64,000 nucleotides of DNA, taken from contig JBBTRR010000001.1 of NCBI GenBank assembly GCA_038065095.1, forward strand, positions 113,546-177,545, written 5' to 3'. Below, piece by piece: positions 2,803 to 16,574 of the stretch. Each line of letters starts with the position of its first letter. Position 1 is the first letter of the stretch. The position numbers and the translations under genes are program-made. This DNA is from Patescibacteria group bacterium (GTDB lineage Bacteria > Patescibacteriota > Minisyncoccia > JACQLN01). The notes beneath the pieces are model-generated. The model searched no databases, had not been told where the DNA came from, and saw only the letters and a program-made list of their open reading frames with translations.

Positions 2803-3108
2803 AAGCCCTCCTTCTAATTTTGAGAATTTTTATTAAGGAACTTTATTAAATTAAAGCAGTCTAAATTTTTCTTGTCAAAGTTGTCAATTTTTATGCATTT
2901 ATCTGTGGATATCCGTTTTAAAAGTTAAGGGTGTAAAATGAATTTAAGTAGTTTAAATTTTATAAAAAAATGCGGTTCGGATTTTTTGCAATTAGCCCTT
3001 GAGTTTAGAAGTCTCTGGTAGTTTTGGTCGTCTGGAGACTTTTTGATTCAAGGTTTTCCCTTGAATAAGGTGGATTCTGGTTGCAAGCTAACGAATCTCA
3101 TAAAAAAT

Positions 3109-7239: not shown

Positions 7240-7262
7240 TTTAATTTTAATTAGTAAAAAAT

Positions 7263-7292
7263 ATACCGAATCTACGATCGTAGATTCGGTAT
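7263..7292. repeat. 30-bp perfect palindrome of the TACGATCGTA-core family; bidirectional terminator-like
   Basis: ATACCGAATC-TACGATCGTA-GATTCGGTAT, located between convergent genes. Confidence 0.6.
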
Positions 7293-7337
7293 ATTCTGTC
7301 TTTAAATATAAATCTACTATCCTTTAATCCTTTCCAT

Positions 7338-7901: not shown

Positions 7902-8009
7902 AATAATAGCGACACTAATTACGAATACACACAAATTTACAAATGAATTTTATTCGTGTCATTCGGGTGAATTCGCGTATTGGTGTCGCGATGAGTATAC
8001 TAAAAGATA

Positions 8010-9161
8010 ATGAAATCATCAAGAGCTTTAGCGGGTGTTTCTTTTGGATTTTTAATAGGTGTATTGGCTCAATCTATTATCGGTTTTTATTTTTGGCTGG
8101 TTTTTATTTTTATTTTAATAGCTATAATTTGTGCTGTTTTAGAAATTTTTGGCGGTTCTGATAAATTATTTTTAGCTTTTATAATTTTATTTTCTGCAGC
8201 GCTGGGTTTTTTAAGAGCGGGAACTTACCACGAAGATTTTTCTCTAAACGAAAAAACTTTTTGGAATATTTCGCGCGAATATTTGGTTAATCGCACAAAA
8301 TCAATTTTACCGCAAAATGAAGGTGCTCTTTTTAATGCTATGGTTTTTGGTTATGAAAAAGATGTTTCTAGTAAAATCAAGAACGATTTTAATATAACTG
8401 GTACTCGGCATGTTTTGGCGATTTCTGGTATGAATATTTCTATAATCGCCTTAATGATTATGGATTTTGCGATTGGTATTGGCTTATGGCGGAAGCAAGC
8501 TTTTTATGTGGCAGTTCTGGCTGTAATCGCTTTTATATTTTTAGTGGGTTCGCCAGCTTCGGCGGTGCGCGCCGGCATAATGGGCATACTTTTACTTTGG
8601 GCCAAAAATAAAGGCAGGTTGGTGCAGGCTTGGCGGCCAATAATGTTGGCCGCGTTTTTTATGGTGGCGCTAAACCCACGGCTTTTGGTTTTTAGTATTG
8701 GTTTTCAACTTTCTTTTTTGGCGGTTATTGGCATTGTTTATTTTAAAAATTTTTGGGACAAAATTTTGTTTTGGATTCCCATAAAACCAATGCGCGAATT
8801 AGTGGTGCTTTCTATGGCGGCGCAAACCACCACTTGGCCAGTTATGGTTTATAATTTTGGCACGCTTTCGGCTATAAGCCCAGTAGCCAATATTTTTGTG
8901 GTGCCGATGCTTAACCCGATAATGTTTTTAGGTTTAGGGTTTGTGGCGGTTTCTTGGAATAGTTATTTAGCGCAAATATTTTTATGGCCAGCTTGGCTGA
9001 TTTTAAAAGCTAATATAAAAATTGTAGATTTTTTTGGTTCGTTTAGTTGGGCTAGCATTAACTTAGGTAAAACCGGTTTAATTATTTTTATTTTTTATCC
9101 TCTTATTTATCTATTTTGGTTATACTTAGAAAAACACGGTTACAATGATTCAATTAACTAA
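8010..9161 (+). CDS. comEC: ComEC/Rec2 competence channel, membrane (competence) domain portion
   Basis: Polytopic membrane protein with the ComEC core motif NITGTRHVLAISGMNISIIA. Confidence 0.8.
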   Translation: MKSSRALAGVSFGFLIGVLAQSIIGFYFWLVFIFILIAIICAVLEIFGGSDKLFLAFIILFSAALGFLRAGTYHEDFSLNEKTFWNISREYLVNRTKSILPQNEGALFNAMVFGYEKDVSSKIKNDFNITGTRHVLAISGMNISIIALMIMDFAIGIGLWRKQAFYVAVLAVIAFIFLVGSPASAVRAGIMGILLLWAKNKGRLVQAWRPIMLAAFFMVALNPRLLVFSIGFQLSFLAVIGIVYFKNFWDKILFWIPIKPMRELVVLSMAAQTTTWPVMVYNFGTLSAISPVANIFVVPMLNPIMFLGLGFVAVSWNSYLAQIFLWPAWLILKANIKIVDFFGSFSWASINLGKTGLIIFIFYPLIYLFWLYLEKHGYNDSIN

Positions 9162-9972: not shown

Positions 9973-9987
9973 CAAATCTAAATCAAA

Positions 9988-10027
9988 AACGTATCCCGAG
10001 CTTACGATCGTAAGCTCGGGATACGTT
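9988..10027. repeat. 40-bp perfect palindrome of the TACGATCGTA-core family after comEC
   Basis: AACGTATCCCGAGCT-TACGATCGTA-AGCTCGGGATACGTT. Confidence 0.65.
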
Positions 10028-10177
10028 ATGAGTTGAGATAAAAATAGCCCATAAATAGCTAGTAAATAAGCCAAGTTTTGAACTATAACAAGCTATTGAC
10101 TTTTATCTTTGTAATATGGTATTATTATGGTGTACTTTAATTTACCAAAAATAATCTAATCAACCAAAGGAGGAGAA

Positions 10178-10351
10178 AATGCTTGGAAGTATTAGTGGCA
10201 CGATCATAGTCGTTGGTGCAGTGGCTATATTTTTCGGAGCCTTCGATCTGTGGGTGGATAGTCCCAGTAACTGGAAAAAGATTGCCACAAAAATCGTGGG
10301 CGGTGTAGTGGTGGTCTGTATTGGCATGTTGATGAAAAAGTTCGGTTTGTA
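10178..10351 (+). CDS. Small membrane protein (57 aa)
   Basis: AGGAGG RBS lies 7 nt upstream. Product MLGSISGTIIVVGAVAIFFGAFDLW...VGGVVVVCIGMLMKKFGL. Confidence 0.45.
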
Positions 10352-10397
10352 ACAGTCTTATTTTTTTGAAGTAAACCTTTTTCCGTATCGGAGGCCT

Positions 10398-10517
10398 TAT
10401 GAAAAAGATGGCTATGCCGGTGTGGAGGTGGTGGGTCAAGGAATACTCTCAAGAAATGTTCATCGGTGCTGCTTTCTTGGCGCTGGCGATTCCGTTTATC
10501 AAATTCTTTTTTGGATA
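10398..10517 (+). CDS. Tiny membrane peptide (39 aa)
   Basis: GGAGG RBS. Product MKKMAMPVWRWWVKEYSQEMFIGAAFLALAIPFIKFFFG. Confidence 0.35.
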
Positions 10518-10526
10518 GGAGAAAAA

Positions 10527-10829
10527 ATGGCTACAAAACCTAGTATAGAAAAGCTCAGAGAATTGGCAAGCAGAAGGAACGTGGCTTACGAAATTAGCAG
10601 GTGGTATTATGAACCATGTTCTTTGTATCAAGAAGTTCAAGAAATCCAGAAAATAGGATTTAAGTCTCAGGCGGCTAGGTGGTTAGAATCTATGACCTCT
10701 GCTGGTATGCAGTTCGGTACTGCTTCAAAAGAAGAAAGATTGAAAGAAGCCCAAAGTATGGCTGATCTTGCCGGTATACCTCTTAAAGAGATTACTGACG
10801 AGATAGGTCTATCGGGCGTGCTTTTGTAG
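10527..10829 (+). CDS. Hypothetical soluble protein (100 aa)
   Basis: AGGAGA RBS. This is the internal start MATKPSIEKLRELASRR... of the 135-aa ORF-track entry. Confidence 0.45.
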   Translation: MATKPSIEKLRELASRRNVAYEISRWYYEPCSLYQEVQEIQKIGFKSQAARWLESMTSAGMQFGTASKEERLKEAQSMADLAGIPLKEITDEIGLSGVLL

Positions 10830-10878
10830 TATTTCCCTCGGACAAATCGTCCATCACTTTAATCAAAGGATAATTCTG

Positions 10879-11202
10879 ATGATAATCACGATAGGCGAAC
10901 TGGTTCGTGACATAAATGGCACAAACCTCGCATGCGTGCCTATGGGAGGGGAAAGTTTCGCATCTCTAACAAGTGAAGAGCGTCTGACGCTTTGGCGTTT
11001 CGATGGGGTAGCTCTGGAGGTTGATGCACAGGCGTTACCGCTTCATGTTTATCTGATGGGCGGTTCGATGAAACGACTGGCCATCTATCCTCGTAGTGGT
11101 TGCATCAAAATTCCTGGAACAAGGTGTATTTCACTCAGCGATGAAGAAAATGGTCACGAACTGGTAATACATCGTGCACCGAAGGATTATATTTACCCTT
11201 GA
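10879..11202 (+). CDS. Hypothetical protein, compositionally atypical (GC roughly 50% against a background near 35%)
   Basis: 107-aa ORF. The GC shift is judged by eye. It is followed by a GAAA-tetraloop terminator. Confidence 0.4.
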   Translation: MIITIGELVRDINGTNLACVPMGGESFASLTSEERLTLWRFDGVALEVDAQALPLHVYLMGGSMKRLAIYPRSGCIKIPGTRCISLSDEENGHELVIHRAPKDYIYP

Positions 11203-11218
11203 CCAAACTGTACACAGT

Positions 11219-11251
11219 CCTCGACGAAAGTCGGGGGCTTTTTTATTTTTT
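11219..11251 (+). terminator. Rho-independent terminator with a GAAA tetraloop
   Basis: CCTCGAC-GAAA-GTCGGGG followed by CTTTTTTATTTTTT. Confidence 0.55.
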
Positions 11252-11271
11252 CAAACCATGGTTTGAAAAAA
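11246..11271. repeat. 26-bp perfect palindrome TTTTTTCAAACCATGGTTTGAAAAAA
   Basis: All 13 base pairs are complementary. It is centred on CCATGG, between the terminator and the next operon. Confidence 0.6.
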
Positions 11272-11354
11272 TATCCTGAGCGAGTTTGCGAGTCGAAGGA
11301 TTACATAAATAGGTAGGACTTTTTTTATTCTAAAAATTTGCTATTATCATCTTT

Positions 11355-11603
11355 ATGGAGATATACTTTACGGATCATGCTAGGTATCAGTTTAAAGAAA
11401 GAAATATATCTCTGGCCGAAGTGGATAGAACCGTCAGGAGACCCGATAAAATATTAAAACAACTATCAGGCAGAATCCGTGCCGTGCGAAGGTTCAAGAA
11501 ACAAAGAAAAGTTTATGCGTTGGTGGCGGTATATGAAGTTAGAAAACACAGAATAGAGGTTGTAACGGTTTTCCTTACTAGCAAGATTAAAAAATATTTA
11601 TGA
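11355..11603 (+). CDS. DUF4258-family protein (putative toxin of the DUF4258/DUF2283 toxin-antitoxin pair)
   Basis: 82-aa product MEIYFTDHARYQFKERNISLAEVDRTV...; family assignment by recall of the DUF4258 pattern. Its stop overlaps the next start (ATGA). Confidence 0.5.
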   Translation: MEIYFTDHARYQFKERNISLAEVDRTVRRPDKILKQLSGRIRAVRRFKKQRKVYALVAVYEVRKHRIEVVTVFLTSKIKKYL

Positions 11604-11818
11604 AACTACATTACGATAAATCAGAAGATGCTTTTTATGTTCGGTTTGATGACAGCCCCTACGCTCAAAGCGATGAGATAGATGAAGGGGTTATTTTTGA
11701 CTACGACAAAAAAGGCAAAATAATTGGTATTGAAATTCTGGATGCCTCCAAAAAACTTTCGCCATCTTTTAGGGCGTCTTTGCGGCTTAAAGAGATTCCT
11801 GTTAGTGTGGGAGCGTAG
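11600..11818 (+). CDS. DUF2283-family protein (putative antitoxin partner)
   Basis: Product MKLHYDKSEDAFYVRFDDSPYAQSDEIDEGVIFDYDKKGKIIGIEILDASKKL matches the DUF2283 consensus (YDxExDxLYIxL...GxIxGIEIL). Confidence 0.55.
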   Translation: MKLHYDKSEDAFYVRFDDSPYAQSDEIDEGVIFDYDKKGKIIGIEILDASKKLSPSFRASLRLKEIPVSVGA

Positions 11819-11878
11819 TTTTTATTTTTAACAAAAGTATCCTCACATAAGAGGATTTTTTATTGTCCTAGTAAATTT

Positions 11879-12469
11879 ATGAATCATCCAAAAGAAGAAA
11901 CAACATTTTTAATGGTTAAGCCTGATGGTGTTAAGCGCGGCTTAACTGGAGAAATTATAAAACGTATAGAGCAGAGGAATTTAAAGTTGGTTGCGCTTGG
12001 CATGGAAAAACCAACTCGCGCCAAAATAGATGGGCATTACCCTAAAGATGCTAAATGGGTTCACCGCTTAGGCGAAAAAACTTTAGCTACATACGAAAAA
12101 TATGGTTACGATGCCAAAAAAGAATTAGGTACAACTGATCCAGATAAAATTGGTAAAATGGTTCGTAGTTGGCTTTTAGATTTTATGTGTTCTGGCCCGG
12201 TGGTAAAAATGGTTATAAAAGGTGTGCATGCGGTGGATATGGTTCGTAAATTAGCAGGAAGCACGATGCCTTCGGCGGCGGAGATGGGCACAATTCGCGG
12301 AGATTATTCGGTGGATTCCCCAGCTTCGGCTAACCGAGATAAGCGTTCGGTGCATAATATTGTGCATGCTTCGGAAACTCCAGAAGAAGCTAGACACGAA
12401 ATTGGATACTGGTTTAGAAAAGATGAGCTTTGCGATTATAAGCGAACGGATGAAGATTTAACTTTTTAA
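11879..12469 (+). CDS. ndk: Nucleoside diphosphate kinase, long form (196 aa)
   Basis: ETTFLMVKPDGVKRGLTGEIIKRIEQ and NIVHASETPEEARHEIGYWF are Ndk motifs. Confidence 0.8.
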   Translation: MNHPKEETTFLMVKPDGVKRGLTGEIIKRIEQRNLKLVALGMEKPTRAKIDGHYPKDAKWVHRLGEKTLATYEKYGYDAKKELGTTDPDKIGKMVRSWLLDFMCSGPVVKMVIKGVHAVDMVRKLAGSTMPSAAEMGTIRGDYSVDSPASANRDKRSVHNIVHASETPEEARHEIGYWFRKDELCDYKRTDEDLTF

Positions 12470-12477
12470 GGTTTTTT

Positions 12478-12559
12478 AAAAATCACTCCGAGCAGCGACA
12501 TGGAGTCCTCTCAATTGTATATTTGGTCATCTCCATGAATGCTACTCGGAGTGATTTTT
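12478..12559 (+). ncRNA. Candidate structured RNA element, copy 1: nested stems around a conserved 25-nt loop
   Basis: Outer stem AAAAATCACTCCGAG pairs with CTCGGAGTGATTTTT. Inner stem CATGGAG pairs with CTCCATG. The loop is TCCTCTCAATTGTATATTTGGTCAT. It lies in the ndk 3' region before the terminator at 12592. Confidence 0.35.
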
Positions 12560-12591
12560 GGGTAAGTGGTTTTAAAAATTAAATAAAAAAT

Positions 12592-12616
12592 CCGAGATCA
12601 AAAGTCTCGGGTTTTT
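12592..12616 (+). terminator. Rho-independent terminator
   Basis: CCGAGA-TCAAAA-GTCTCGG followed by GTTTTTT. Confidence 0.55.
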
Positions 12617-12633
12617 TATTGAACCCCGTAAGA

Positions 12634-12670
12634 GTTTTACACTTATAGTTTAGTGTAAAACATTTTTTTA
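12634..12670 (+). terminator. Second hairpin with a T-tract
   Basis: GTTTTACACT (12634-12643) pairs with AGTGTAAAAC (12652-12661), then ATTTTTTT. Confidence 0.45.
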
Positions 12671-12721
12671 GCGGTTTAGACTTTACTTTGAAAAATACTC
12701 TAACAGTAAAATTCTAACGGG

Positions 12722-12905
12722 GTGAACTTGGTCGGGATTTTAAAAGTATGTTCAGCCTAGTTAATAGGTGGGTTTCCGCAACGATCAACGCCCGAACGAA
12801 TCAGCACATAGTCGCAATTTAGGAATCCCTAGAACAATTATTTTGAGCTAAAACTTTTAAAATCCTTAATCCCGACTTTACGTCGAGACCAACCACCAAG
12901 TTCAC
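12722..12905. ncRNA. Candidate long-hairpin ncRNA (~184 nt) closed by an 11+7 bp terminal stem; 6S-like rod architecture, strand undetermined
   Basis: GTGAACTTGGT-CGGGATT (12722-12739) pairs with AATCCCG (12868-12874) and ACCAAGTTCAC (12895-12905). No credible ORF lies in the region. Confidence 0.25.
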
Positions 12906-12977
12906 TTTTATTATAGCTCCACAACGTATCAATTCAAGTATGTTTATCCACCTAGTTTTTGTAGGTTTTTTGTTTTT

Positions 12978-13060
12978 AAAACATAACCCTAAATAGACGA
13001 TGCGGAGGCCTCTCAATTGTAGAATTGGTCATCTCCGCGATGCTATTTGGGGTTATGTTT
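12978..13060 (+). ncRNA. Candidate structured RNA element, copy 2 (same family as 12478-12559)
   Basis: Outer stem AAACATAACCCTAAATAG pairs with CTATTTGGGGTTATGTTT. Inner stem GCGGAG pairs with CTCCGC. The loop GCCTCTCAATTGTAGAATTGGTCAT is 22/25 identical to copy 1. Confidence 0.35.
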
Positions 13061-13101
13061 AGGGAGTAAAAGATAGAATACAAAAATTATTTTTGTTATA
13101 G

Positions 13102-13773
13102 TTGTTTTGTATGTCTTTTATAGATTACGCACAGGATTTTACTAAAAAAGAATCGCTTTCAGAAAAAAAGAAGCGGATGCTTAAGGTTATTAAATTTTTA
13201 AAAGGCAAATTCCCCGAGGCTAAAATTGCCTTAAGTTTTGAAAACCCCGTTCAACTTTTGGTGGCGGTAATTCTTTCGGCGCAATGTACAGATAAAAAAG
13301 TTAACCAAGTAACAGAAAGTATATTTAAAAAATACAAAACCTCGGCAGATTTTGCCAAATTAACCCAAACTCAATTAGAAAAACTAATCCATTCGTGCGG
13401 ATTTTACAGGGCCAAGGCTAAAAATATAATTGGTGCTATAAAAATTATAGAAAATAAGTTTGGCGGCAAGGTGCCAAACACAATGGCAGAAATTTTGATC
13501 TTACCTGGTGTGGCTAGAAAAACTGCAAATGTTGTTTTGGGTAACGCTTACAATGTGGTTGACGGTATAGCTGTGGATACGCATATGATTAGAATAAATC
13601 AAAAATTAGGGTTTACTCGCCAAAAAGATCCAGTTAAAATTGAACGCGATTTAATGCAGATAATTCCTAAAAACGAATGGTTTAGTTATACTTATAGAAT
13701 AATAAACTATGGTCGCGCTGTTTGTACGGCGCGGCATAAAAAATGTGAGTGCAAACTTTATCAAATTAAATAA
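13102..13773 (+). CDS. nth: Endonuclease III (HhH-GPD DNA glycosylase with a 4Fe-4S loop)
   Basis: LPGVARKTANVVL is the helix-hairpin-helix motif. GIAVDTHMIR and the C-terminal CTARHKKCECKLYQ (C-x6-C-x2-C-x5-C) complete the pattern. Confidence 0.85.
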   Translation: MFCMSFIDYAQDFTKKESLSEKKKRMLKVIKFLKGKFPEAKIALSFENPVQLLVAVILSAQCTDKKVNQVTESIFKKYKTSADFAKLTQTQLEKLIHSCGFYRAKAKNIIGAIKIIENKFGGKVPNTMAEILILPGVARKTANVVLGNAYNVVDGIAVDTHMIRINQKLGFTRQKDPVKIERDLMQIIPKNEWFSYTYRIINYGRAVCTARHKKCECKLYQIK

Positions 13774-13798
13774 AAAGGGAATTAATGGAAGAAATGGG

Positions 13799-14923
13799 AT
13801 GAAAGGGGTTGTTTTTCTTTTTCTTTGTTTTCTGTTGCTTGATTTTAGTATTTCGGCTGAGGCGGGTAAGGTGGGCGATATTAAAAAAAGAATCAAGACA
13901 AAAGTTTCGGTTTTTTTACCTCAAAACAGGCAAGCTCAAATGCAATCGGTAAAAACGGGCATATTTTTTAGCCCAATGGAGACTGTTATTTTGGGCGGAC
14001 CAGAACAGAACAGTATTATACAAAATACCAAAGTTGAGTTTACTTTAGACGGTTGGCAAGTTTTGCCCTTCGAAAAAACAAATCGTTTTGATGTTTGGTT
14101 GATTGGCTACGATACTGGTTGGCGGGCGGTTAGTAGCAAAGTCACCTATAATCTTCCTGCGGGTAAAAAGACTTATACGTTATTGGCTCGTGCCAAAAAC
14201 GCTCAAGGTGAATACGACAATACGGCCGTAATCAGAAGTTTTTTGGTAAATGTTTCCGATAACTTTGGAAAAGTTAAAATTAGCAATGTTAATTACAGAG
14301 GATCTTCTAATAAACCTAACTACGAAAAAGTATCTATTGTTAATCGTTCTAGTGATTTAGGTGTAAACATTACTGGTTGGACGTTAAAAACAAAGCGTTT
14401 TAGTAATTCGTTTCAAATTCCTCAAGCATCCAGAGTGTATAATCCAAGGGATTTAAATGCTACAGATAATATTGTTTTAAATAAGGGCGGAGTTGCAGAT
14501 TTTTTTGTAGGCAAGAGAAGCCCATTGAGTGTGAATTTTCAAGAAAATGCTTGTGATGGTTATATATCTAGCGCTTTTGAAAGTTATGATTCTCTTTCCA
14601 GTACAGGCAGGTGTAATTTACCAAGTCGATCCGATTATAATAGTTACAGTATATCTTGCAGGGGGTATCTTAATGGTATAAGTTCATGCAAAGAGCCAAG
14701 GTTAGAATATTTTAGCTTTATTAACGAACCTTCTTGCCGAGAATTTATTACTAAAAATTATAATTACCAAGCTTGTGTGGAGCGTTCTAAAAATCAAGCT
14801 AGTTTTTATTTAGGCAAGTGGAAAATATATTTGGGACATAACGAAGAAATTTTAGATGATCTTGATGATACTTTATATTTATATGATTCTATGGGGTTGT
14901 TGGTAGATACCTATAGTTATTAA
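13799..14923 (+). CDS. Secreted lamin-tail-domain (LTD) protein with a Cys-rich C-terminal region
   Basis: Signal peptide MKGVVFLFLCFLLLDFSISAEA. LTD-like segment NVNYRGSSNKPNYEKVSIVNRSSDLGVNITGWTLKT. Ten or more Cys in the last 120 aa. Start set at the internal ATG 13799 to avoid overlap with nth. Confidence 0.6.
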   Translation: MKGVVFLFLCFLLLDFSISAEAGKVGDIKKRIKTKVSVFLPQNRQAQMQSVKTGIFFSPMETVILGGPEQNSIIQNTKVEFTLDGWQVLPFEKTNRFDVWLIGYDTGWRAVSSKVTYNLPAGKKTYTLLARAKNAQGEYDNTAVIRSFLVNVSDNFGKVKISNVNYRGSSNKPNYEKVSIVNRSSDLGVNITGWTLKTKRFSNSFQIPQASRVYNPRDLNATDNIVLNKGGVADFFVGKRSPLSVNFQENACDGYISSAFESYDSLSSTGRCNLPSRSDYNSYSISCRGYLNGISSCKEPRLEYFSFINEPSCREFITKNYNYQACVERSKNQASFYLGKWKIYLGHNEEILDDLDDTLYLYDSMGLLVDTYSY

Positions 14924-14950
14924 TGGTTGGGTAATTAATTAGAGATAAAA

Positions 14951-14982
14951 TAGCACGAGCTTACGATCGTAAGCTCGTGCTA
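14951..14982. repeat. 32-bp perfect palindrome of the TACGATCGTA-core family; bidirectional terminator-like
   Basis: TAGCACGAGCT-TACGATCGTA-AGCTCGTGCTA. Confidence 0.65.
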
Positions 14983-14990
14983 AGTGCTTT

Positions 14991-15209
14991 TTATCGGAGC
15001 ATTTCATCTGCCAGATTTCTGATTTCGGGTTTAACCCGAGGATCGTTTAGGATTTTTTCACGGCAGGCTTCCATCATGCCTATGGGGTGTATTCGGGATC
15101 CAGCCAAGCTTTCTATTGCCAGCTCGGCTAGTTGGGTTGGTGTGGTTCCATGTGGTAATGGTTCGAGATCGAAAGTAGCCAAAAAATAAGCCTGTTCTAA
15201 AATATCCAT
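14991..15209 (-). CDS. Hypothetical small acidic protein immediately downstream of murD
   Basis: 72-aa ORF MDILEQAYFLATFDLEPLPHGTTPTQLAELAIESLAG... It is co-directional with murD, 3 nt away. Confidence 0.4.
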   Translation of the reverse strand: MDILEQAYFLATFDLEPLPHGTTPTQLAELAIESLAGSRIHPIGMMEACREKILNDPRVKPEIRNLADEMLR

Positions 15210-15212
15210 TGA

Positions 15213-16574
15213 TTAACTCCTTTCTTTAAAGAACTGGTTAAACCGCTCGCCTCTATCAAATTCGTTTTTGAATTTTTCAAAACTGGCGGCGGCAGGCGAA
15301 AAAAGCAATATCTTTTTGCCTTTAATTAATTTGGCATGTTTTACGGCCGAGGTCAAAAGTGTGGAGAAGTCTATAAAAAGTTGAGGTCTAGTGTTTTTAA
15401 AATATTTTTCTCCCAGCGAATCTAACATTTTTTTGGTAGCCGAGCCGTCTAACAAGAAAAGATTGGCCGGTTTTATATATTTTTTAACAGATTTAGCCCA
15501 GTCATCAAACTCCAAATTTTTACTGGTGCCGCCGGTTATTAATATCAAGGTTAAACCTTGATGGGTGAATCGGTTTAAGGCGGCGATGGTGGCATCGGGT
15601 GAAGTAGCGGTGGTATCGTTTACTACTGTTAAATTTTTGTCTTTTAAAATTATTTCTTGTCTAAATTTTATTTGAGGCAGAGTTTTTATGGCTTTTTTAA
15701 TTGTCTTCCAATCTACGCCAGCTAAATTAGCGGCAAGAGAAGCTGTTATTAGGTTTTGGATATTATGATCGCCAAGATGCAAAAAAGAGAACGGGATTAA
15801 ATGAGAGGAAGGAGGAAAATGCGTAAAAAGAACTTGGCTGGCTGGTTTTTGTTTTAAATAAAAATTTGTCCAAGGGTTTTTCTTATTAAGAATCAAAAAA
15901 TCATTTTTGGTTTGGTGCTTAAAGATATTGGCTTTAGCTTCGGCGTATTCGGCTATATCTTTGTAGCGGTTTAAATGATCTGGATAAATATTTGTTATAA
16001 CCGCAATGTGGGGTGATTTTTCGGAAACGGGTAATAGCTCTAAATGCCAGCTTGAAAGCTCAACCACAACTGGGCTTTTTTCGTCTAAGCTATCTAAAAC
16101 GCCAAGCATGGGGCTATCGGAAGAATTTCCGGTTAAAACTGAATTAGGAAATTTTTGTTTTAAAAAGTGAAGAATCCAGTTTGCAGTGGTGGTTTTACCA
16201 CGCGTGCCAGTAACGCCAATAATTGGATTTTTACAAAAGCGGAAAAACAAACTAGCTTCGTTTTCTAAAATAGCGCCAGCTTCGCGCGCGATTTTTAAAT
16301 ATGGGCTTTCTTTGGGTACGGCCGGGTTTACTACAATAATTTGATTATTTTTAAAATCGGATTCGTTGTGTTTGCCTAAAACAAGTTTTATTTTCTTGGC
16401 GGCTGACCCAAGTGCTTTTATAGAGCTTGATAGATCGGCACGAGATTTTAAGTCGGTTACAGTAACCTTTGCGCCATGTTTAACTAGCCATTTGGTTGTG
16501 GCAATTCCACCACCCAAAAGGCCTAAACCCATTACCAACACCTTTTTGTTTTTGAGATATTCGGAAGGGGTCAT
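15213..16574 (-). CDS. murD: UDP-N-acetylmuramoyl-L-alanine--D-glutamate ligase
   Basis: N-terminal Rossmann KVLVMGLGLLGGGIATTKWLVKHGAKVTVTD, Mur-ligase P-loop GVTGTRGKTTTANW, and a C-terminal Mur ligase domain. Confidence 0.88.
   Translation of the reverse strand: MTPSEYLKNKKVLVMGLGLLGGGIATTKWLVKHGAKVTVTDLKSRADLSSSIKALGSAAKKIKLVLGKHNESDFKNNQIIVVNPAVPKESPYLKIAREAGAILENEASLFFRFCKNPIIGVTGTRGKTTTANWILHFLKQKFPNSVLTGNSSDSPMLGVLDSLDEKSPVVVELSSWHLELLPVSEKSPHIAVITNIYPDHLNRYKDIAEYAEAKANIFKHQTKNDFLILNKKNPWTNFYLKQKPASQVLFTHFPPSSHLIPFSFLHLGDHNIQNLITASLAANLAGVDWKTIKKAIKTLPQIKFRQEIILKDKNLTVVNDTTATSPDATIAALNRFTHQGLTLILITGGTSKNLEFDDWAKSVKKYIKPANLFLLDGSATKKMLDSLGEKYFKNTRPQLFIDFSTLLTSAVKHAKLIKGKKILLFSPAAASFEKFKNEFDRGERFNQFFKERS

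Follow-up and report, generated by a model that had tools for sequence, protein, structure and literature searches.

The two nested hairpins located at 12478–12559 and 12979–13060 on the forward strand of the window (i.e. the whole 64-kb stretch of DNA that was analysed) were confirmed to be members of an undescribed, low-copy family of 80–105-nt imperfect palindromes in groundwater Parcubacteria. Database scans, two covariance models and synteny look-ups together revealed 16 distinct related hairpins, all of them on Parcubacteria/Patescibacteria groundwater contigs and so far stemming from few lineages. Bacteria of the Candidate Phyla Radiation (CPR) have tiny, tightly packed genomes in which, to our knowledge, almost no regulatory RNAs or repeat elements have been described, and a search of the literature on Parcubacteria and the CPR revealed no relevant description of such an element. 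The hairpin family provides a defined and testable element in the CPR: covariation is strong, non-canonical positions are conserved, and co-existing strains exchange a modular apical loop. The features of the window to which the analysis refers are the following:

12478–12559, + strand: hairpin copy 1, with a type-A apical module (95.1 bits with covariance model R1, 43.8 bits with covariance model R2)
12478–12492/12545–12559, + strand: outer stem of copy 1 (folding)
12494–12497/12540–12543, + strand: middle stem of copy 1 (folding)
12499–12505/12531–12537, + strand: inner stem of copy 1, CATGGAG/CTCCATG (folding)
12506–12530, + strand: apical loop of copy 1, TCCTCTCAATTGTATATTTGGTCAT
12585–12620, both strands: ordinary bidirectional intrinsic terminator, AAAAAATCCGAGA-loop-TCTCGGGTTTTTT, serving ndk and copy 1 (+) and the 6S candidate (–)
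12722–12905, – strand: 6S RNA candidate, a 184-nt rod-shaped RNA between the hairpins
12910–12937, – strand: sigma-70-type promoter of the 6S candidate, TTGAAT-16-TATAAT (promoter scan)
12979–13060, + strand: hairpin copy 2, with a type-A apical module (98.6 bits with R1; orthologues in contigs L019, L023 and L029)
12979–12996/13043–13060, + strand: outer stem of copy 2 (folding)
13001–13008/13032–13039, + strand: inner stem of copy 2 (folding)
about 13009–13032, + strand: apical loop of copy 2, CCTCTCAATTGTAGAATTGGTCAT

An earlier note on this DNA had described two such elements with loops identical at 22 of 25 positions; both elements are present and the count is correct, while the repeat finder showed the common block to be longer, namely 33 nt at 91% identity (GGAG-N-CCTCTCAATTGTA-NNN-TTGGTCAT-CTCC), and also reported each hairpin as a long inverted repeat. 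The 28-nt shared loop sequence CCTCTCAATTGTANANTTGGTCATCTCC has exactly two matches in the window, both on the + strand (12507–12534 and 13009–13036), against a chance expectation of zero (100 shuffles). The copy 2 loop departs from that of copy 1 only in the base following GGAG and in two bases of the variable triplet (TAT versus GAA), and the copy 1 loop with its GGAG/CTCC closing pairs recurs identically in contigs L012, L021 and L026. The nested hairpins fold at –41.1 kcal/mol (z –7.8) for copy 1 and –42.0 kcal/mol (z –7.7) for copy 2, with none of 200 shuffles being as stable in either case. Their stems are nevertheless not perfectly paired, as had been claimed for both copies, since copy 1 carries a C·A mismatch, a G·U pair and an A/AA internal loop, and copy 2 four G·U pairs. 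The further claim that the stems are completely different holds for the outer arms of copies 1 and 2, whose similarity does not rise above that of shuffles (z –0.4), but not for the inner stems, which share GGAG/CTCC. Finally, the small ORFs on both strands, read by eye across the copies, revealed no conserved peptide or frame: the reading in copy 2 meets an immediate stop, and the three variable loop positions are spread over codon positions in all frames read. A coding role of the hairpins was thus rejected, in agreement with the earlier note.

The family emerged from successive layers of searching. A loop-pattern scan over one genome per species yielded 18 matches, three of which were true hairpins with other arms (L012 and L015, both Parcubacteria, and L019, a Candidatus Yanofskybacteria), the other 15 being chance matches without such a hairpin; each matched species-representative genome held a single exact type-A loop match. 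Scanning of metagenomes added L021, L026 and L023 (the latter a sister strain of the window organism), all from Hainich groundwater, where these contigs derive from wells H41, H43 and H51. Covariance model R1, built from eight copies, revealed a second type-A copy in L015 (74.6 bits) together with weaker relatives carrying other loops, and synteny look-ups via Ndk homologues located hairpins at the same two sites in L040, L043, L045 and L049. Because model R2, built from the hairpins of these four contigs plus that of L026, recovered the type-A copies on the same strand at 34–55 bits, the different types form one superfamily. Over the 64-kb window, R1 and R2 indicated no further convincing copy beyond the two, and copy number is low in general (two in 64 kb, one to three per locus).

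Rfam 15, run on the whole window at gathering threshold, only reported two tRNAs and nothing at the hairpins; at E ≤ 10, the region 12300–13250 gave sub-threshold matches only, attributable to the terminator and to hairpin shape in general, and the loci with type-C copies likewise gave nothing at the hairpins. The earlier note had proposed both a covariance-model search and an Rfam scan, and had named a lack of further copies and covariation, or a match to a known Rfam family, as counting against it. Neither came about, as the former search recovered further copies with covariation support and the latter found no family matching the hairpins. A viral origin was rejected because a pattern scan of viral contigs gave chance matches in coding sequence only, and a plasmid or phage origin because blastn of 12470–13070 against plasmids and phages gave no match. 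Similarly, none of a dif/Xer site, an IHF site, an NrdR box, a sigma-54 promoter or rolling-circle nick sites fitted across the copies when their consensus sequences were compared.

Members of the family share four parts: a fast-evolving outer stem of 12–18 bp that starts with an A-run and ends with a T-run, a middle section in which non-Watson-Crick positions are conserved, an inner stem of conserved sequence, GGAG(G)/(C)CTCC, and an apical module of type A, B or C. The composite stems comprise 28–34 pairs with conserved internal loops, and the apical modules measure 24–37 nt. The anti-SD-like stretch that had been pointed out at the 3′ side is indeed present, but its partner in the stem is the SD-like GGAG(G) on the 5′ side, and nothing was found to suggest an action on ribosomes. 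The three loop types are:

type A: CCTCTCAATTGTA-NNN-TTGGTCAT
type B: 3′ end as in type A, plus a 27-nt mini-hairpin
type C: AG...CCTCYC..TATAAT-like..., closing pairs GGAGG/CCTCC; both arms contain TCGCTC

Pairing within the family was shown to be maintained by compensatory change. Specifically, 93.3% of the cells in the model-fitted type-A alignment were paired versus 79.5% in shuffles, both sides had changed in 16 of its 28 pairs, and none of 500 shuffles reached the observed percentage paired, compensatory pair count or covariation score; when the partner was slid by 1–3 columns as a control, pairing fell to about 40%. RNAalifold on plain MAFFT alignments found compensatory changes in 16 of 29 pairs for type A and in 15 of 26 for type C plus L026, and copy 2 of the window is separated from its orthologue in L019 by four or more double substitutions that preserve pairing. 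Moreover, outer arms are similar between genomes (z 8.7 for L015A and L021hp2, 5.9 for L012 and L015A, and 4.6 for copy 1 of the window and L015A), and across the wider family they are diverged yet homologous rather than unrelated. Because the arms are homologous between genomes and pairing is conserved by compensatory change, the whole hairpin is the evolving unit, and insertion of the loop into unrelated host terminators was rejected on the same homology.

This selection on structure speaks for the reading that we tentatively prefer and regard as a good possibility, short of probable, namely that the hairpins act in cis to mark where transcription units end, and that a conserved factor recognises their apical module. 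Very stable hairpins would then act in cis on transcripts where intergenic space is almost absent, serving as a terminator or insulator and/or as a 3′-end protector or RNase III-type cleavage site between cistrons, while the conserved apical module and the conserved mismatches would form the docking site of the factor. On this reading, the element would be transcribed, would terminate transcription or be processed, and would be bound by a factor, all of which we infer. A less likely but still sizeable alternative is that the family constitutes a DNA-level palindromic repeat, selfish or neutral and without RNA function. Hairpin- or cruciform-templated correction, together with gene conversion between copies, would then maintain the complementarity of its arms, and its main effect would be to promote recombination. 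The same apical 33-mer is retained despite strongly diverged arms (L012, L021, L026 and copy 1 of the window), which supports the cis-acting hairpin; such identity across genomes needs purifying selection and in turn argues against a DNA-level repeat.

The earlier note had taken the covariation as an argument for an RNA structure. The covariation is indeed strong, but that the folded molecule is RNA, and that of the + strand, is not established by it, as G·U pairs are as rare as A·C. In the 223 cells of the type-A alignment, 3 G·U were counted versus 4 A·C, and the arms of all 16 copies hold 7 wobble-type mismatches on the sense strand versus 13 on the reverse strand. The reverse strand is also more stable on average (mean 4.5 kcal/mol, Wilcoxon p 0.017), with the largest gap for type C (e.g. 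–20.5 versus –38.1 for the reverse strand in L040), although composition accounts for part of this advantage, the loops of that strand being rich in G and U. The G-U versus A-C counts and the folding energy do not identify the folded strand. This lack of a strand signature and the better average folding of the reverse strand count against a cis-acting transcript hairpin, and pairing that is almost purely Watson-Crick and free of strand bias suits a DNA-level repeat. The mismatches point the other way. The TC/TC internal loops of type C and L026, as read on the sense strand, become on the reverse strand two tandem G·A pairs that enclose a GC step, and they recur in copies of six different genomes, and type A carries a conserved purine-purine mismatch on the sense strand, adjoining the inner stem. 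Such conserved mismatches point to specific recognition and not to stem stability alone, in support of the cis-acting hairpin with its docked factor, whereas palindrome correction, as proposed for the DNA-level repeat, would erase them.

The sites of the hairpins, which occupy short gaps between genes, speak for the cis-acting reading as well. The ndk gene ends at 12469 and copy 1 starts 8 nt later, ending 25 nt before the bidirectional terminator, while copy 2 lies between the 6S promoter (about 40 nt away and divergent) and the nth start codon at 13113 (52 nt downstream). Hairpins start 8–34 nt after the stop codons of ndk (window and L043), of pgk and recJ (L015) and of an nrdJ-like gene (L026), and the copies of L040, L045 and L049 begin just past the 6S terminator. 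L015 has three copies, with the layout tpiA–pgk–hairpin–recJ–hairpin–rnhA, and in L015 and L026 the next gene follows 9–15 nt beyond the hairpin; the copies of these two contigs are intercistronic. The direction of the loop is that of the flanking genes at about eight of nine independent sites, which favors the cis-acting hairpin over a DNA-level repeat, although this bias could equally reflect the direction of replication since nearly all genes of the window are on one strand. Only the L021 copy at 7981–8062 is antisense to both neighboring genes, contrary to what a transcript-end mark would predict. In most copies the 3′ base is rich in T, as expected for transcript ends, with 131 T downstream versus 96 mirrored A upstream over the 16 copies, and seven copies have 10–11 T within 16 nt. 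The hairpin upstream of nth is present across lineages with 84–100% Ndk identity, a persistence that fits vertical inheritance and further supports the cis-acting reading.

Some of these sites are nevertheless awkward for a hairpin that marks transcript ends. Our terminator scan does not call the hairpins, whose stem base is A-T rich and whose loop is too long for it. At copy 1 and at the L012 copy, termination does not require the hairpin, since an ordinary terminator follows about 25 nt further on in each case. In L015 and L026, a strong terminator would silence the next gene, as its start 9–15 nt beyond the hairpin leaves no room for a promoter. Moreover, the hairpin is dispensable, as some related lineages lack it at one or both sites: at the ndk–nth locus L039 has none, L040, L043, L045 and L049 have one, and the window lineage has two. 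This variable presence between related lineages would also be in line with a DNA-level repeat.

Two observations were made on the genes flanking the hairpins. First, nth appears to carry an extended –10 (TGTTATAGT) 8 nt before its ATG at 13113 (13095–13115), with the same arrangement in L019 and L045, and to be leaderless or nearly so. Second, the region upstream of ndk (11355–11818) holds two small overlapping ORFs with a weak match to Pfam DUF4258 and a match to DUF2283, a combination commonly annotated as a toxin-antitoxin module.

The earlier note had also placed the elements in a candidate small RNA or cis-regulatory family. The family itself stands, with copies in other genomes, but a trans-acting small RNA, in which the conserved loop would be a seed pairing with a conserved target, is the least likely version of it and in our estimate highly improbable. 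In its favor, conservation is highest in the loop, which would be exposed, and a discrete RNA could be delimited by the terminators that follow copy 1 and the L012 copy. Against this, no promoter was found upstream of copy 1, which lies 8 nt past the ndk stop codon, the L015 and L026 copies are wedged between genes without a terminator of their own, and several paralogous loop types coexist. Moreover, scans of genomes and metagenomes on both strands only returned the hairpin copies and chance matches in coding sequence, and no complementary target.

The RNA encoded between the two hairpins at 12722–12905 is probably a 6S RNA gene. Its orthologue in L040 (2732–2890) matches the Rfam 6S family RF00013 over the full model at 33.3 bits (E 0.0012), which is below the gathering score of 46.4, and the window candidate itself has no Rfam match. 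The 6S gene, together with its promoter and terminator, is on the ndk/nth strand in L039, L040, L043, L045 and L049, but inverted in the window, L019 and L023, with end points no more than about 25 nt away from copies 1 and 2. A functional link between the hairpins and the 6S RNA was rejected, as no 6S homologue is found near the copies in L012, L015, L021 and L026.

Several other small elements were noted in this region. Positions 12624–12722, between the 6S 3′ end and the terminator, hold a MITE-like insertion of 99 nt whose terminal inverted repeats are CCCCGTAAGAGTTTTAC and GTAAAATTCTAACGGGG; it is flanked by a TGAA duplication (12620–12623 and 12723–12726), and its site is empty in L019. 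A relative of this element sits inside the 6S promoter of L047, between two TATAAT copies (about 2735–2838). A second family of palindromes, perfect or nearly so and centred on TACGATCGTA (e.g. TAGCACGAGCTTACGA/TCGTAAGCTCGTGCTA), occurs at 1587–1618, 7260–7295, 9976–10039 and 14951–14982, always in intergenic gaps and in three of the four cases starting 4–41 nt past a gene end; similar palindromes, centred on CGATCG, follow ndk in L039 and L047. A DnaA-box-like TTATCCAC (12944–12951) adjoins the 6S promoter on its upstream side, and L040 and L045 conserve this motif, which reads GTGGATAAA on the 6S strand, at the corresponding position.

Family copies were shown to recombine with each other. 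Among 11 contigs with identical Ndk (the window and ten others), the copy 1 loop is of type A in six and of type B in five, while the copy 1 arms are identical and all differences fall inside 12499–12523; the surrounding region is a mosaic of identical and diverged stretches. L019, a different species, has type B at the copy 1 site, with a compensatory change in its mini-hairpin, so that type A in copy 1 of the window is probably a recent replacement. The 3′ arm of copy 1 in L019 has copy-2-like patches, and L040 (about 3058–3085) and L049 (about 1853–1880) each carry an orphan second 3′ arm (GAAGTCGCTTGAACCAAT... and GAAGTTGTTCGGACTGATT..., respectively) about 25 nt downstream of the hairpin. 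Within each of these two lineages, the sequence of the orphan arm tracks that of the first 3′ arm. Over a longer distance, window positions 10001–15439 compared with L029, which has an identical Ndk, show identical stretches mixed with about 15% diverged ones (e.g. 11372–11495 and 14288–15417), a mosaic that indicates frequent homologous recombination in this groundwater population. A programmed invertible promoter was rejected, since the orientation of the loop is the same in all 11 sister-strain contigs; in L021, the asymmetric middle section is flipped along with the loop.

The swap of loops on identical arms, the patched 3′ arm of L019, the orphan 3′ arms and the inverted 6S segment with its end points near both hairpins all favor a DNA-level repeat, as does the occurrence of other small palindromic elements in the same genomes. 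If the element acted at the DNA level only, it would be a recombination hotspot that inverted the 6S RNA locus. For a repeat of this kind, however, copy number is very low, and conservation is lowest at the ends, on which a transposase would depend, with no target-site duplication seen.

The apical module also resembles a promoter, and it is conceivable, if improbable, that the family constitutes a compact terminator-promoter cassette with a sigma-70-type promoter in the loop of a terminator hairpin. The arms would then stop transcription from the upstream gene, and the transcript started in the loop would have the 3′ arm only and could not re-form the hairpin. The more specific claim that such a cassette would be self-contained, insulating neighboring genes within about 85 bp, seems a shade more improbable still. 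The promoter scan flagged GCGACA-17-TATATT in copy 1 with a score of 9/12, the variable positions of the type-A loop are positions 3–5 of TAnnnT (TATATT, TAGAAT, TAGTCT, TATAAT), and type-C loops have TATAAT, TATATT or TATCTT after their CCTCYC tract, so that TAnnnT is kept in nearly all loops. However, AT-rich loops often contain TAnnnT by chance, and the three variable positions also just make up the tip of the hairpin. Canonical TTGnnn-17-TAnAAT promoters are in use in these organisms, as seen for 6S, but the "–35" of the hairpin loop lacks TTG, is weak in type A and is absent or displaced in types B and C, and a promoter explains neither the invariant 17-nt "spacer" nor the downstream TTGGTCAT. 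The downstream genes in L015 and L026 start 9–77 nt past the hairpin with no room for another promoter, which would suit a cassette. On the other hand, nth appears to be served by an extended –10 of its own, transcripts from copy 1 and from the L012 copy would meet a terminator after only about 90 nt, and the L021 copy points away from any gene. If the cassette were true, the loop replacement between strains would amount to a swap of promoter modules on a fixed terminator. More generally, whether the hairpins mark transcript ends, as we prefer, or carry promoters, they would show how the expression of adjacent genes can be separated with almost no spacer.

The known kinds closest to the family are small intergenic palindromic repeats, bidirectional intrinsic terminators, T7-type RNase III sites and integron attC sites. 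The small intergenic palindromic repeats SPRITE, ERIC and Correia have been reviewed (PMC3184786), and like these the hairpins are imperfect palindromes of about 100 nt in intergenic or 3′-UTR positions, the known repeats being co-transcribed with genes, and are associated with rearrangements (PMC3184786). They share a terminator-like shape with SPRITE and size variants through internal insertions with ERIC, and Correia elements can carry promoters or protein-binding sites, as considered here for the hairpins (PMC3184786). In contrast to these repeats, the hairpin family conserves its centre most and its termini least, shows compensatory substitutions between orthologues, and numbers one to three copies per locus (two in 64 kb) rather than tens to hundreds. 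Two MITE traits of Correia and ERIC are lacking, as the outer arms are the least conserved part instead of forming conserved terminal inverted repeats and copies are few; no target-site duplication is seen either, the hairpin flanks being too diverged to define a duplication or an empty site. REP/BIME elements are 20–40 nt, G+C-rich, numerous, marked by a conserved 5′ GTAG and associated with a RAYT transposase, whereas the hairpins are 80–105 nt with A+T-rich ends and no GTAG. Integron attC sites are likewise imperfect palindromes that fold as single strands, keep structure above sequence and flank gene-sized segments, but in attC it is the R″/R′ base that is conserved and the apical part that varies. 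The hairpin family shows the reverse, with variable stem bases that lack the RYYYAAC/GTTRRRY core, and neither an integrase nor a cassette array is present. The family fails the testable defining features of MITEs, REPs and attC, and is absent from Rfam.

Like bidirectional intrinsic terminators, the hairpins combine an A-run, a stable stem and a T-run right after stop codons and are Watson-Crick paired on both strands, but intrinsic terminators have a stem of 5–14 bp and a loop of 3–8 nt, as opposed to a composite stem of about 30 bp and a conserved apical module of 24–37 nt, and some copies adjoin a normal terminator or directly precede a start codon. When RNase III cleaves intercistronic hairpins of the phage T7 type, the downstream leader is released and a hairpin stays behind to protect the 3′ end. 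The hairpin family differs from such sites in that its apical module is large and sequence-conserved, and RNase III cleavage of it is hypothetical. It shares with them a stem of more than 20 bp, co-directional genes, conserved internal loops and variable helices, and the duplex of at least 20 bp with internal loops between cistrons that characterises RNase III processing hairpins is indeed present in the family (28–34 pairs, with L015 and L026 as the intercistronic cases).
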